DNA from: an uncultured Candidatus Saccharibacteria bacterium
GTDB taxonomy: Bacteria; Patescibacteriota; Dojkabacteria; SC72
Assembly: GCA_964655705.1 (NCBI GenBank)
Contig: CAZZPP010000003.1
Span: forward strand, 37,427-101,426
DNA: 64,000 nt
Direction of reading: 5' to 3'
In this document: positions 2,392 to 5,978 of the stretch, in pieces
How the letters are laid out: each line of letters starts with the position of its first letter
Position numbering within the stretch: position 1 is the stretch's first letter
Notes under the pieces: generated by a model
Seen by the model: only the letters and a program-made list of their open reading frames with translations
Database searches by the model: none
What the model was told of the DNA's origin: nothing
Translations under genes and position numbers: made by a program

Positions 2392-2438
2392 TAATTATTG
2401 ATTAAATCCCACCCCTCTGTTACAATCATGTTACGATT

Positions 2439-2511
2439 GCTGGTGTAGCTCAGTTGGTAGAGCATTCCCTTCGTAAGGGATAGGTCGACGGTTCGATCCC
2501 GCCCACCAGCT
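2439..2511 (+). tRNA. tRNA-Thr, anticodon CGT
   Basis: Acceptor GCTGGTG/CACCAGC, D-arm GCTC AGTTGGTA GAGC, anticodon loop TTCGTAA, T-loop TTCGATC. There is one mismatch in the anticodon stem and one in the T-stem. No encoded CCA. Confidence 0.8.
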
Positions 2512-2524
2512 TACTCATATACAC

Positions 2525-3616
2525 ATGGATACACACAAATATACAATTACAAATCTAATCCTTAACTATATTGTTAAGTATGAACTAGCTATTCAGACCA
2601 TTAATAATACCGTTATTCCTAGTCCCTTGCTTTTTGAAGTTACTGAGAAGTTAAGAACAGAGGAGATAGATAAGTTAGGTGAGTTAATTGCATATCCAAT
2701 TGGATACAACAAATCTTTAACTGTACAAAGAGGACAGGTTACTCCATCTTACAAAACTAAATTAAAGATATTTACAAATTTCAAAAATGTTCAAGACTTC
2801 ATTGACTCGTATACCATTAAAAGTAATCTTAAACCCTCAATTGAACTCTCTACACATCTAAACAAAATATTAATGAAGGATATTGTAGAACCATGGGATC
2901 AAGGAAGATTGAAAAACTTTTCAGAAAAACCCTTTGACCTTTTTGACTCATGGTATCCCCTTCGTGATTACTACCCCAATATTGATTCAAGATATCACTT
3001 TAACGATCTTTTTAATTGGATAACTAATTCCTCCACTGGAACACATAAGTTAATACAGTTGTGTATACTTCTTTACGAATATATTGATAAGGCGCCATTT
3101 TTTAGTGGTAACCAAATTACTGCAATAGCTACATTAAAAATACTAAGTAAAATATATGGCCTTAATCCCCATAATATCGTTCCTTTTTCAAAGGCTCTCT
3201 TTACAATTAGTGAAGATATACAATCGGCATTTAAAATATCCAAAGGTAAAAGAGATCTAACAATCTTCATTGAAGCAATACTGTATACCCTTTCTCTTAC
3301 TGTAATTGATACTTCTAAAAGAGTAACACAGGAGTATGATACTAAACTAAACATAAGGAAAGGCCTTAGTAAAGATTTAAATCAAAGACAGATTAAAATT
3401 ATTGAATACCTAAATAGTAATCCCAGTGTAACTAGAAACGCTTACTCCAAAATGATGGGGGTGTCATTCATGACTTCTTACAGAGACTTACAAGACCTAA
3501 TATCCAAGGAATATATCTCTCAGAAGGGACAAGGAAGAGGTACATACTACTTCATACCTGATCAAGATACCCAAGAACAAGAAAGAGTTGAAAGAGAAAT
3601 TAAACTTTTTACCTAA
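2525..3616 (+). CDS. Fic/DOC-family protein with a degenerate Fic motif and a C-terminal winged-helix domain
   Basis: The core at aa 189-201 reads APFFSGNQITAIA, against the consensus HPFx[DE]GNGRxxR. The C-terminal segment IEYLNSNPSVTRNAYSKMMGVSFMTSYRDLQDLISKEYISQKGQGRGTYY is a typical Fic C-terminal wHTH. Confidence 0.6.
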   Translation: MDTHKYTITNLILNYIVKYELAIQTINNTVIPSPLLFEVTEKLRTEEIDKLGELIAYPIGYNKSLTVQRGQVTPSYKTKLKIFTNFKNVQDFIDSYTIKSNLKPSIELSTHLNKILMKDIVEPWDQGRLKNFSEKPFDLFDSWYPLRDYYPNIDSRYHFNDLFNWITNSSTGTHKLIQLCILLYEYIDKAPFFSGNQITAIATLKILSKIYGLNPHNIVPFSKALFTISEDIQSAFKISKGKRDLTIFIEAILYTLSLTVIDTSKRVTQEYDTKLNIRKGLSKDLNQRQIKIIEYLNSNPSVTRNAYSKMMGVSFMTSYRDLQDLISKEYISQKGQGRGTYYFIPDQDTQEQERVEREIKLFT

Positions 3617-3653
3617 ATTGCGATTGTAATATATAACTGATATCATTTTTAAT

Positions 3654-5174
3654 ATGATTGATACATCTAAATATGACATAATTATTGGCTTAGAGATACA
3701 TATACAGAGTAAAACAGACTCTAAAATGTTTTGCTCATGTCCAACCCATTACTTTGAAAAAGAGCCAAATACACATGTATGCCCCGTATGCTTAGGATTA
3801 CCAGGGGCATTACCTGTCCCAAACAGAAGAGCTATTGAATTGTGCATACTTCTGGGTTTAGCTACTAATTGTGATATTGATTCAGAGATTCACTTTGACA
3901 GGAAACATTACTTCTATCCCGATTTACCTAAAGGATATCAGATTAGTCAATACAAAAGACCCATATGCTCTGATGGATATATTGATATTAAGGATGAAGA
4001 TGGCAAAAAGTATACCATTGGGATTGAAAGAATTCACCAAGAAGAAGATGTAGCGAAATCAACACACCACAAAGAATCCTCTACTGGATTAGAGTACTCA
4101 CTAATTGATTACAACAAATCAGGAGTTCCTCTAATTGAAATTGTAAGTAAGCCAAATATTAGAAGTGCATATCAAGCTAGGGAGTATGCAAATAAAGTAA
4201 GACAGATTGTAAGATATCTAAATATCTCGGATGCTGACATGGAGAAAGGTCAAATGAGATGCGAACCAAACATCTCCATCCAAGAAAAAAGAAAGTGGGA
4301 ATACAAGGATGGAAAAATTCTACCTGTTGACAATTACATACTAAATTTAAAGTCCGAAATAAAAAATATTGGTTCAATATCTGCTGTTGAAAAATCAATC
4401 GACTATGAAGTTCAAAGAATGATTAAAGAATTAGAGACAGGTAAAACTTTAATACAACAAACAAGAGGATGGAATGCTGATAAAGGTATAACAGAATTCC
4501 AAAGATCTAAAGAAACTGCAGATGATTACAGATATATGCCTGATCCTGATATCCCCCTAATTAATATATCTGTAGAGGATATTGAAAAAATTAGTAAAGA
4601 GTTAGTAGAACTACCAAGTGAGAAAATAGAGAGATATCATCAAGAGTACGACCTTTCAGATTACGATTGTAATGTACTTACAGCTGATAGAGATATATCA
4701 AAATACTTCGAGGATGTTCTTAATCTTCTCTCAGAGGGTAATGATATTAAAAAGGTTGCTAAATCTGCTTCTAATTGGATTACAGGTGCAATCTTCTCAA
4801 TAGCCAATGATAGAAAGATAGATATTAACGAAGAGAATATTCCGAAGGCTGATTTGGTACACTTAATTAGGGTATTCGAAGAGAACAGATTAACAAGAAG
4901 TAAAGCTGAAGAGTTACTGAGAGAGTCTCTAGGAAATGACAAGCACCTAAATGAACTAATAGAGAATGCCTTAACAGAAAGCATAAAGAGTTCAAGTAAC
5001 TTAGGTGATATTGTAGATACAGTTATTTCTAACAATCCTAAAGCAATACAAGATTACAAATCAGGAAAACAAACTACTATTGGTTTTCTAATAGGGCAAG
5101 TAATGAAACAGACAAAAGGTACAGCAGATCCTAATGAGGCTAAATCAGTTTTAATAGAAAAATTAAATGGATAG
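3654..5174 (+). CDS. gatB: Asp-tRNA(Asn)/Glu-tRNA(Gln) amidotransferase subunit B
   Basis: IIGLEIHIQSKTDSKMFCSC..., a HQEEDVAKS-type core and the C-terminal YqeY-like tail QDYKSGKQTTIGFLIGQVMK are all present. Confidence 0.9.
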   Translation: MIDTSKYDIIIGLEIHIQSKTDSKMFCSCPTHYFEKEPNTHVCPVCLGLPGALPVPNRRAIELCILLGLATNCDIDSEIHFDRKHYFYPDLPKGYQISQYKRPICSDGYIDIKDEDGKKYTIGIERIHQEEDVAKSTHHKESSTGLEYSLIDYNKSGVPLIEIVSKPNIRSAYQAREYANKVRQIVRYLNISDADMEKGQMRCEPNISIQEKRKWEYKDGKILPVDNYILNLKSEIKNIGSISAVEKSIDYEVQRMIKELETGKTLIQQTRGWNADKGITEFQRSKETADDYRYMPDPDIPLINISVEDIEKISKELVELPSEKIERYHQEYDLSDYDCNVLTADRDISKYFEDVLNLLSEGNDIKKVAKSASNWITGAIFSIANDRKIDINEENIPKADLVHLIRVFEENRLTRSKAEELLRESLGNDKHLNELIENALTESIKSSSNLGDIVDTVISNNPKAIQDYKSGKQTTIGFLIGQVMKQTKGTADPNEAKSVLIEKLNG

Positions 5175-5463
5175 TAAAACTCTTAAACATATCTCAGAGC
5201 TTTCTAGAATATCTCTTACAGATAGGGAGTTAGAAGAGTTTACTCCTCAAATGGAAACCATATTAGATAGTGCTAAAAAATTACAAGAAGTAGATACAAC
5301 AAATGTTTCCCCTATGAAAAGACATCTACCCTTTAATTCTCTTAGAGAAGATACCCCAGGGGATAGCCTCTCTCAAGAGGAAGTACTGCGTAATGCTAAT
5401 CACAAAGAGAATGGTTATGTAAAGGTATATGGAAAGATATTCGGGAGTATTGAAGAAAGCTAA
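5167..5463 (+). CDS. gatC: Amidotransferase subunit C
   Basis: 98 aa: ISELSRISLTDRELEEFTPQMETILDSAKKLQEVDTTNVSPM matches GatC. It overlaps the gatB stop by 8 nt. Confidence 0.8.
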   Translation: MDSKTLKHISELSRISLTDRELEEFTPQMETILDSAKKLQEVDTTNVSPMKRHLPFNSLREDTPGDSLSQEEVLRNANHKENGYVKVYGKIFGSIEES

Positions 5464-5511: not shown

Positions 5512-5597
5512 GCCGAGATGGTGAAACTGGCAGACACGCTTGCCTTAGGAGCAAGTGGGAATAATATCCCTTGGAGGTTCGAGTCCTCTTCTCGGCA
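5512..5597 (+). tRNA. tRNA-Leu, anticodon TAG
   Basis: Acceptor GCCGAGA/TCTCGGC, anticodon stem CTTGC/GCAAG with loop CTTAGGA, long variable arm and T-loop TTCGAGT. Confidence 0.9.
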
Positions 5598-5620
5598 TAT
5601 ATATATTTAGTCAATTAAAC

Positions 5621-5863
5621 ATGGGAATAAAAATCATATCACCTTTTCAAAAAGTCTTACTTCAAAAAAGATTGTGCGTAGGATGTACTGCTTCATTGGA
5701 CAAAGCCAAAAAATTAGGCAAACTATCTGAAAGAAGAGAGTTAGTAGAGTGTAAATGTAAACGAAGATATGTATATAATAAGGAGTTTAATGAGTACCAA
5801 AGAGCAACTATTGCAGAAGAGCAACAGTTCTTAAGAGACCTTAACAAAAAACCTTTGTTGTAG
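5621..5863 (+). CDS. Small Cys-containing hypothetical protein, possibly a zinc ribbon
   Basis: The ORF-track start at 5555 overlaps tRNA-Leu. The internal ATG at 5621 (MGIKIISPFQK...) avoids that overlap. It contains CVGC ... CKC cysteine pairs. Confidence 0.3.
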   Translation: MGIKIISPFQKVLLQKRLCVGCTASLDKAKKLGKLSERRELVECKCKRRYVYNKEFNEYQRATIAEEQQFLRDLNKKPLL

Positions 5864-5881
5864 TAGAATCACTAGATGTAT

Positions 5882-5954
5882 GCCGCTATCGTCTAGTGGA
5901 CTAGGACGACAGGTTTTCATCCTGTAAACCGGGGTTCGATTCCCCGTAGCGGTA
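5882..5954 (+). tRNA. tRNA-Glu, anticodon TTC
   Basis: Acceptor GCCGCTA/TAGCGGT with a G1:U72 wobble. Anticodon stem ACAGG/CCTGT with loop TTTTCAT. T-arm CGGGG TTCGATT CCCCG. Confidence 0.85.
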
Positions 5955-5978
5955 AATATAATTTAATGCCCCAAATTA

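Follow-up and report, generated by a model that had tools for sequence, protein, structure and literature searches.

A Fic-like gene between tRNA-Thr and gatB

The window analysed here is a 64-kb stretch (64,000 nt) of contig CAZZPP010000003.1 from an uncultured bacterium of the Dojkabacteria lineage. Close to its 5′ end lies the gene of a Fic-like pseudoenzyme (2525..3616, + strand, 363 aa), in which N-terminal helices and a degenerate Fic core are followed by a DeoR-type winged helix. The open reading frame exists as a preliminary description of this DNA had given it. A tRNA-Thr gene with anticodon CGU (2439..2511, +), found by both ARAGORN and Rfam, ends 13 nt before the start codon. Downstream, gatB (3654..5174, +; Pfam GatB_N and GatB_Yqey) follows after 37 nt and is itself overlapped by 8 nt by gatC (5167..5463, +). 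Upstream of the tRNA are tRNA-Gly(CCC) (1254-1326) and two genes whose domains were identified by Pfam, one encoding an NYN domain (1441-1983) and one a PCC domain (1990-2391); the placement of the Fic-like gene after tRNA-Thr and an NYN/PCC pair had thus been given correctly. The family is present in one copy in the window, and no second, catalytically intact paralog that could be a target for regulation was found in the 64 kb. In the literature searched, we found no mention of Fic together with Dojkabacteria.

The protein shares the fold and domain order of SoFic, CccR and CbFic2

Taken alone, the window protein matches the Pfam Fic profile (PF02661) with 16.5 bits and an E value of 0.016, below the gathering cutoff of 24, and HTH_DeoR (PF08220) with 16.5 bits against a cutoff of 21. 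A match to HTH_24 is likewise sub-threshold, and sequence matches of the single protein in the PDB are marginal only. As these scores lie below threshold, the claim of a Fic fold needed evidence at the level of the family. In a protein search, 169 relatives were found with identities between 99% and ~49%, and those that are named all belong to Candidatus Dojkabacteria (candidate division WS6, within the candidate phyla radiation (CPR)/Patescibacteria). Their database names are inconsistent and include 'hypothetical', 'Fic family', 'DeoR family regulator' and 'membrane protein'. Among 33 diverse family members, 27 match Pfam Fic (best E 1.3e-6), 23 match HTH_DeoR at E ≤ 0.01 (best 9e-7) and 11 match ScpB. 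The DeoR-type helix-turn-helix is C-terminal in the window protein, whereas it is N-terminal in DeoR repressors.

Profile and structure comparisons gave the same picture. Alignment by hhalign with the nearest relatives that carry the canonical motif, drawn from an exhaustive hidden Markov model search, reached a probability of 99.95% and an E value of 1.7e-38 over 347 collinear columns. An AlphaFold2 (AF2) model built from the family alignment has a mean predicted local distance difference test score (pLDDT) of 85.2 and a predicted template modelling score (pTM) of 0.75. When this model was searched with Foldseek, the best match was Dde_2494 (4rgl; E 9.5e-11), and all top matches were Fic proteins with a domain of the winged helix-turn-helix (wHTH) type. 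SoFic (3eqx/3zcn/3zec) was found at ~1e-8 with template modelling scores of 0.60-0.64 and CbFic2 (8cil) at 2e-8, followed by M. marinum Fic (7cb8) and FICD, with E values ranging from 1e-10 to 1e-4. The full-length alignments span 350-375 columns. CbFic2 (8cil) is also the top PDB match in the sequence-profile search (E 1.2e-6), covering the helix after the motif and the wHTH. By hhalign, Foldseek and the model, the architecture is collinear with that of SoFic, CccR and CbFic2: N-terminal helices, Fic core, a long connecting helix and a C-terminal wHTH. Because the family Pfam matches, the AF2/Foldseek comparison and hhalign agree, we conclude that the window protein is a bona fide homolog of the SoFic/CccR/CbFic2 architecture, and the Fic assignment of the preliminary description is borne out.

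The C-terminal winged helix that had been proposed is likewise present, at about aa 283-345 (3371..3559, +), where the model shows a helix-helix-helix-strand-strand order with the recognition helix VSFMTSYRDL and the wing GQGRGTYY. This domain also matches the wHTH structures of AspA and MarR. It is the most conserved module between the subfamilies described below, with 48% identity compared to 15-26% for the Fic part. The protein is basic, with an isoelectric point of 9.0 overall and 9.6 for the wHTH, and the family shares a conserved N-terminal helix, K-Y-T-I-T-N-L-I-L-N-Y-I-V-K-Y-E-L.

The catalytic and inhibitory motifs are lost and their replacement is conserved

In place of the canonical signature xHPFx[DE]GNGRxxR, the protein has the degenerate loop K189-A-P-F-F-S-G-N-Q-I-T-A-I201 (3089..3127, +). 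Three independent alignments agree in placing canonical H-P-F-x-D-G-N-G-R-x-x-R on A190-P-F-F-S-G-N-Q-I-T-A-I201. The catalytic His, the metal-binding acidic residue, the second Gly and both phosphate-binding Arg are lost; these substitutions had been listed correctly before, but the residue numbering given with them, 189-201, was off by one. A genuine Fic motif with an intact His elsewhere in the protein is ruled out, since the three alignments concur and the protein contains no HPF. The inhibitory motif of class II Fic proteins, [ST]xxxE[GN]N, is lost as well: in hmmalign and hhalign comparisons with canonical relatives, S-T-S-I-E-G-N falls on L51-G-E-L-I55-A56-Y57 (2675..2695, +), with the inhibitory Glu replaced by I55.

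The replacement is itself under strong constraint. K189, A190, P191, N196 and Q197 are invariant in the family alignment and F192, G195 and T199 nearly so, and all 81 loci with a readable motif region carry [DE]-K-A-P-[FY]-x-x-G-N-Q-x-[TS]. Across ~100 Dojkabacteria species, K-A-P-F-x-x-G-N-Q-x-T is invariant or nearly so down to ~50% identity, and every ortholog examined of type 1 (the subfamily with the motif KAPFxxGNQ) has Ala at the position of the catalytic His. Given this conservation, and with the reading frame intact everywhere, the degenerate motif is due neither to chance nor to recent pseudogenisation. The replacement is not drift, and the loss of catalysis looks ancient and selected.

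A second conserved segment, aa 124-151 (2894..2977, +), is remodelled and corresponds in the alignment to the flap segment (G.yR) that canonical Fic proteins have. It holds eight invariant residues (S133, K135, P136, D141, W143, R147, D148 and P151), and its mean pairwise identity of 0.64 is on par with the wHTH. Within type 1, the Fic core as a whole is at 0.63-0.64 compared to 0.63 for the wHTH. In the AF2 model, which matches full-length Fic+wHTH structures, the secondary-structure topology of the signature region is kept, with helix 175-189, loop 190-195 and helix 196-210. Structures of Bartonella Bep proteins show that the P, F, G and N of the signature form the invariant structural core of the loop, and that in Bep8 the binding of triphosphate is blocked by a side chain at the position of the second Gly (PMC8401265); in the window family this position is an invariant Gln. 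As the catalytic and phosphate-binding side chains are replaced, and the replacement is conserved in orthologs, canonical AMPylation or phosphocholination, which the preliminary description had held to be impossible, is very unlikely. Given the conserved loss of these side chains, its suggestion of a binding or regulatory module is a sensible reading.

The gene order is fixed in Dojkabacteria

We scanned the GTDB species representatives, found the gene in ~100 genomes and retrieved 80 loci. Among the type-1 loci with at least 300 bp of upstream sequence, all 79 have tRNA-Thr(CGU) upstream on the same strand, with 8-21 nt (maximum 66) between the end of the tRNA and the start codon. On the other side, 82 of 83 loci have gatB as the next gene downstream, in the same orientation, the lone exception being a contig that ends at the gene, and the median gap from the Fic-like stop to the gatB start is 28 nt. 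The whole neighbourhood is conserved through lepB-parA-parB. As the order tRNA-Thr(CGU), Fic-like gene, gatB, gatC is fixed in essentially every Dojkabacteria genome examined, the gene is a vertically inherited core gene of Dojkabacteria, and the earlier impression of an accessory-looking spot is refuted.

The variable element of the locus is the NYN/PCC pair, which looks like a lineage-specific insertion between two tRNA genes. In ~30 related loci tRNA-Gly(CCC) lies directly upstream of tRNA-Thr(CGU), ~50 nt away, and the insert is seen elsewhere only in part, as the PCC gene in L006 and the NYN gene in L013. The fixed arrangement, in which this pair is what was inserted, rules out a genomic island at the tRNA. 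Nor does the locus resemble a toxin-antitoxin or mobile Fic system: the gene occupies one fixed locus in ~100 species representatives and has housekeeping neighbours, and no small partner reading frame of the toxin-antitoxin type was found beside it. For annotation, this is a caution that a position next to a tRNA gene does not make an island.

The 8-21 nt between tRNA and ATG leave no room for a separate promoter, which makes co-transcription from the tRNA-Thr promoter a straightforward inference; the Fic-like gene is probably co-transcribed with tRNA-Thr and gatBC. A terminator scan of the window found no terminator-like site between tRNA-Thr and gatC. An Rfam scan at E ≤ 0.1 for known RNA elements in the stretch from the tRNA to gatB, such as a T-box, a riboswitch or a leader, found nothing but the four tRNAs. 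A link to tRNA-Thr(CGU) through its ACG codon was also considered and proved uninformative, as ACG is rare (18 of 436 Thr codons) and is used for none of the 30 Thr codons of the Fic-like gene.

The leaders of the Fic-like gene (2512-2524, 13 nt) and of gatB (3617-3653, 37 nt) are A/T-rich and have no Shine-Dalgarno-like purine run, and the same holds across the orthologous loci displayed (L001-L083). This sequence pattern suggests that initiation may be independent of a Shine-Dalgarno sequence, on an mRNA that tRNA processing leaves almost without a leader.

The gat genes are split in this group. The window has gatB-gatC and no gatA in 64 kb; gatA lies 3-5 kb upstream in some relatives, deep type-1 loci have gatB-gatC-gatA, and loci of the type-3 subfamily have gatC-gatA-gatB (loci concerned: L001, L061, L066-L068, L076, L080, L087 and L088). 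Beyond the gat genes, a reading frame between tRNA-Leu(UAG) and tRNA-Glu(UUC) (window 5512-5955, listed as 5555-5863) encodes a small Cys-rich protein (CVGC...C.C). Because the start as listed overlaps the tRNA, a later ATG is probably the true one. Many loci have the 3′ part of its coding sequence (…EEQQFLRDLNKKP) conserved right before tRNA-Glu, and in L001 and L087 there is an unannotated gene of comparable size (97-99 aa) between the gat genes and lepB.

A direct repeat marks the tRNA-Thr promoter

A consensus scan places a promoter-like site for the tRNA-Thr/Fic-like/gatBC unit at 2398..2426 (+), with a -35-like TTGATT (2398-2403), a 17-nt spacer and the extended -10 element TGTTACAAT. 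Over the -10 box and the expected start of transcription lies the direct repeat GTTACAATCATGTTAC (2419..2434, +), a candidate operator with two copies of GTTAC about one helical turn apart. The type-1 consensus directly upstream of tRNA-Thr reads TGTTACAAT-N2-4-(T)GTTACRAT. In 71 of 78 unique orthologous loci TGTTACAAT is exact and ends 11-13 nt before the 5′ end of the tRNA, and in 70 of 77 the second GTTAC copy follows 9-12 nt downstream, start to start (mode 11), over the expected transcription start.

The repeat is specific to this site. Within the 64-kb window, TGTTACAAT and GTTAC-N4-9-GTTAC each occur once. In 782 kb of type-1 loci, searched on both strands, 68 of the 74 matches to GTTAC-N4-9-GTTAC are at the tRNA-Thr promoter, where the repeat is present in 68 of 79 type-1 loci, and only 6 matches are elsewhere. 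The promoters of tRNA-Gly(CCC), tRNA-Leu(UAG) and tRNA-Glu(UUC) in the same loci have -10 boxes of the TAGTAAAAT or TAGTAGAAT type without the repeat. A generic promoter element of the organism is therefore ruled out, and we conclude that the GTTAC repeat is real, locus-specific and under selection. Variants such as GTTAC-N6-7-G[ATG]TACGAT are found in the type-3 loci L087, L090 and L130. The idea that the repeat travels with the whole protein superfamily is not supported, as most type-2 loci lack it.

Sister subfamilies keep the tRNA-Thr partner

The exhaustive profile search gave 2365 matches at E ≤ 1e-3, which fall into groups by score and motif. Type 1 from Dojkabacteria (KAPFxxGNQ, ~345-377 aa) has the highest scores, and type 3 (GNQ/GNT/GNF variants, ~360-420 aa) has intermediate scores. 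Type 2 (x-P-F-x-x-x-N-[KQ]-x-T, ~347 aa) scores lower, and canonical relatives with HPFxDGNGR, of varied size, lie below ~95 bits. Types 2 and 3 are likewise labelled Dojkabacteria/WS6. In these sister subfamilies the position of the catalytic His varies freely (A, Y, M, I, C, Q or S) and the Fic part drifts.

Linkage to gat is restricted to part of this family. Among type-3 loci, L087 has tRNA-Thr and the Fic-like gene followed by gatC-gatA-gatB, showing that the linkage persists under a different gat order; in L088 the Fic-like gene is convergent with gatCAB. L090 and L130 are without gat genes and retain lepB-parA(-parB), and L089, also without gat genes, retains tRNA-Leu(UAG) and tRNA-Glu(UUC). 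Type 2 is not gat-linked and is often convergent with uvrC, as in two of the three loci examined in detail (L084 and L085). A universal linkage to gatB is therefore not supported. The tRNA-Thr gene, in contrast, adjoins the Fic-like gene in type-3 loci too, and in a metagenome scan 35 of 46 testable type-2 loci had tRNA-Thr(CGU) at most 500 nt upstream, co-directional in 29 and divergent in 6. In the six divergent loci the two genes are 45-193 nt apart, an arrangement like that of a regulator and its target, which co-transcription cannot explain. The tRNA-Thr(CGU) gene is thus the oldest and most persistent partner of the Fic-like family, and gat linkage is a property of type 1 and part of type 3.

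No long contig shared by types 1 and 2 was seen among the matches listed, a weak negative, which suggests only weakly that the two types occupy different Dojkabacteria lineages rather than co-residing. The same search brought up further His-less Fic+wHTH lineages beyond the three subfamilies, for example with 'SYPF..FNLQT' in P0157/P0171, 'SPF.GLNF' in P0156/P0166 and 'PF..GNL' together with a VSDDTILRDL wHTH in P0207/P0212. With several such lineages, loss of catalysis with retention of the wHTH seems to be either repeated or old and widespread. Two long proteins, P0158 (2918 aa) and P0242 (1019 aa), carry four to six tandem copies of a wHTH that is closely akin to the C-terminal domain of the Fic-like family.

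Possible functions of the pseudoenzyme

We tentatively propose, as a reading that falls somewhat short of an even chance, that the Fic-derived pseudoenzyme is a DNA-binding (auto)regulator of the tRNA-Thr/Fic-like/gatBC transcript, with the dead Fic domain as a dimerisation or sensor module. The ancestor would have been a class II Fic AMP-transferase of the SoFic/CccR/CbFic2 type with N-terminal dimerisation helices, in which the catalytic and inhibitory residues were then replaced by a new, strictly conserved loop and a remodelled flap. From the dual function of this ancestor, the catalysis-independent half, dimeric DNA binding through the wHTH, would have been kept and the enzyme half lost. 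A transcript from the tRNA-Thr(CGU) promoter would run through tRNA-Thr, the Fic-like reading frame, gatB and gatC. The dimer would bind the GTTAC direct repeat, which overlaps the -10 box and the start site, and so (auto)regulate the unit. The dead and highly constrained Fic domain would then be the scaffold for dimerisation and would probably sense a ligand or a protein.

The three studied homologs with this architecture all bind DNA through the wHTH. CccR binds to repeats located near the -35/-10 elements of its own promoter via the C-terminal HTH, as a dimer formed by the N-terminal helices and independently of catalysis (PMC9755527); SoFic, as a dimer, binds the 100-bp stretch that precedes its own start codon (bioRxiv 10.64898/2026.07.09.737422); and the wHTH of CbFic2 binds double-stranded DNA and drives dimerisation (PMC10628234). 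By analogy with these proteins, the repeat could be the operator of the Fic-like protein.

Several points weigh against this proposal. DNA binding by the Fic-like protein and its specificity for GTTAC are inferred by analogy. The recognition-helix residues S..T..RDL are common to canonical Fic-wHTH and DeoR proteins and are thus uninformative on a specific operator. The repeat lies upstream of tRNA-Thr in only 1 of 37 type-2 loci, though their wHTH is very similar, so repeat and protein do not strictly co-vary, and RNA polymerase or some other factor may instead be what reads the repeat, as a promoter or leader element specific to tRNA-Thr. As gat linkage was lost in several lineages, gatBC is not the sole raison d'être of the protein. 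Lastly, the dead Fic core and flap are very highly conserved in type 1, which points to a role additional to that of a passive dimerisation scaffold.

There are also explanations in which the Fic domain itself does the work. It could be a protein- or RNA-binding adaptor in translation rather than transcription. As such it might assist GatCAB or the transamidosome as an accessory subunit or chaperone, bind EF-Tu, or handle the tRNA-Thr/mRNA co-transcript, with a wHTH that binds RNA or only dimerises. The adjacency to gatB in 82 of 83 type-1 loci, which survives the changed order gatC-gatA-gatB in L087, and the adjacency to a tRNA gene throughout the loci described speak for such a role. So does the remodelled and conserved state of the region equivalent to the target-docking flap, with its eight invariant residues at aa 133-151. 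EF-Tu is the target of SoFic (bioRxiv 10.64898/2026.07.09.737422), structurally the nearest of the characterised relatives, and the non-catalytic FIC domain of BepC acts purely via target binding (PMC8401265). Against this, type 2 and some type-3 lineages keep the protein without gat linkage, the gat operon is convergent in L088, and the most conserved module is a wHTH of the DeoR DNA-binding type, and we consider the adaptor unlikely. A further possibility joins the two ideas: the dead Fic domain may still dock its ancestral kind of target, a translation component (EF-Tu, as with SoFic, GatCAB or charged tRNA), as a sensor, so that a pseudoenzyme transcription factor would couple the state of translation or tRNA amidation to tRNA-Thr(CGU)-gatBC transcription. 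We regard this as a distinctly improbable, speculative extension.

The invariant polar set around the old active site (H111, N113, S133, K135, D141, R147, D148, E185, K189, N196, Q197 and T199) could also mean that the protein is still an enzyme, with a new catalytic or small-molecule site and a chemistry other than AMPylation. The type-1 Fic core and loop are conserved on par with the wHTH and hold many invariant polar residues, and in the model the signature still runs from loop to helix. There are precedents for unusual Fic chemistry, since relatives with non-canonical motifs catalyse other reactions, phosphorylation by Doc and phosphocholination by AnkX (PMC8401265), and C. fetus Fic2 is toxic despite a degenerate motif (PMC5651007). 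However, the known active Fido enzymes, including these three, all keep the catalytic His (PMC5651007, PMC8401265), which is Ala here, and the Gln at the second Gly position occupies the site at which the Bep8 side chain blocks triphosphate binding (PMC8401265). The freely varying His position and drifting Fic part of the sister subfamilies are also unlike a conserved active site, so that a new enzyme is highly doubtful.

Alternatively, the gene order may be frozen synteny, in which the reading frame merely depends on a strong tRNA-Thr promoter and the protein is a general DNA-binding or nucleoid-associated wHTH protein with targets elsewhere. The 8-21 nt gap ties the reading frame to the tRNA promoter, and the conserved block is long (tRNA-Gly/tRNA-Thr/fic-like/gat/tRNA-Leu/tRNA-Glu/lepB/parAB), extending through lepB-parA-parB. 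CbFic2 binds DNA without sequence specificity (PMC10628234), and the wHTH resembles ScpB and AspA. Both flanks, however, rearrange repeatedly, with NYN/PCC and other variable genes upstream and gatB, gatC, uvrC or parB downstream; the tRNA-Thr/Fic-like pair persists through these rearrangements, even in divergent orientation; and conservation of the locus-specific GTTAC repeat extends to a divergence at which neutral intergenic sequence has reached saturation. Frozen synteny therefore seems rather improbable to us, and (auto)regulation at the tRNA-Thr promoter is the reading we prefer.

Degenerate FIC domains and Fic+wHTH autoregulators are each already known. What is new is a phylum-wide, His-less and Glu-less Fic+wHTH core gene that is tied to a tRNA gene and gatBC and has its own conserved promoter repeat. 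Fic proteins have been studied almost wholly as enzymes, and DNA-binding autoregulation was recognised lately, in CccR (2022), CbFic2 (2023) and SoFic (2026). The Dojkabacteria family looks like a natural separation-of-function experiment, in which catalysis and auto-inhibition were erased long ago while the protein, including the former active site, stays under strong purifying selection as a core gene of reduced CPR genomes that carry little that is dispensable. If the regulatory reading is true, Fic+wHTH proteins can fulfil their non-catalytic role in its own right, a function would be assigned to one of the many conserved Dojkabacteria genes that lack an annotation, and the locus would be a rare case of a dedicated regulator encoded within a tRNA-mRNA co-transcript that also carries gatBC. 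If the reading with a translation sensor is true, it would be a regulatory circuit of an undescribed kind, conserved across a candidate phylum of ultra-small bacteria.

Comparison with known systems

The proposed transcript resembles the thrU-tyrU-glyT-thrT-tufB operon of E. coli, in which the mRNA of a translation factor directly follows tRNA-Gly and tRNA-Thr genes and shares their transcript. The cargo differs, being EF-Tu in E. coli and the Fic-like protein, GatB and GatC here, and the E. coli operon is not known to encode a regulator.

For the signature loop, the nearest parallel is found in Bartonella Bep8 ('PFxxGNE') and BepC, which conserve only the structural part PFxxGN; their catalytic positions drift and the loop fold stays canonical (PMC8401265). 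The numbering of H146 in Bhe_BepC suggests that BepC retains the catalytic His (PMC8401265). In contrast to the window protein, the Beps lack a wHTH; they are host-targeted effectors of a type IV secretion system that descend from class I FicTA modules and carry OB and BID domains.

CbFic2 of Coxiella burnetii (PDB 8cil) has the same DUF4172/Fic_N, Fic and DeoR-type wHTH architecture, but it is catalytically active on histone H3, is a pathogen effector, and binds DNA without sequence specificity. SoFic (SO_4266; PDB 3eqx/3zcn/3zec; InterPro 'SoFic-like C-terminal wHTH'), which dimerises through its N-terminal helix, is among the best full-length structural matches at an identity of ~13%. It is an active AMPylase/deAMPylase of EF-Tu with the inhibitory Glu E73, whereas the window protein has A190 at the catalytic and I55 at the inhibitory position.

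CccR (YPK_0951) of Yersinia pseudotuberculosis shares the N-terminal dimerisation helix, the Fic core and the C-terminal HTH (PMC9755527). It differs in its intact HPFxxGNGR, its AMPylation of FtsZ, its secretion as a toxin by the type VI secretion system and its operator, a widely spaced palindrome. The window protein has no catalytic residues, is encoded by a chromosomal CPR core gene, and has as candidate operator a direct repeat at a tRNA promoter. As a dimer, CccR represses its own promoter independently of catalysis (PMC9755527), and this is the activity that we propose may survive in the window protein.

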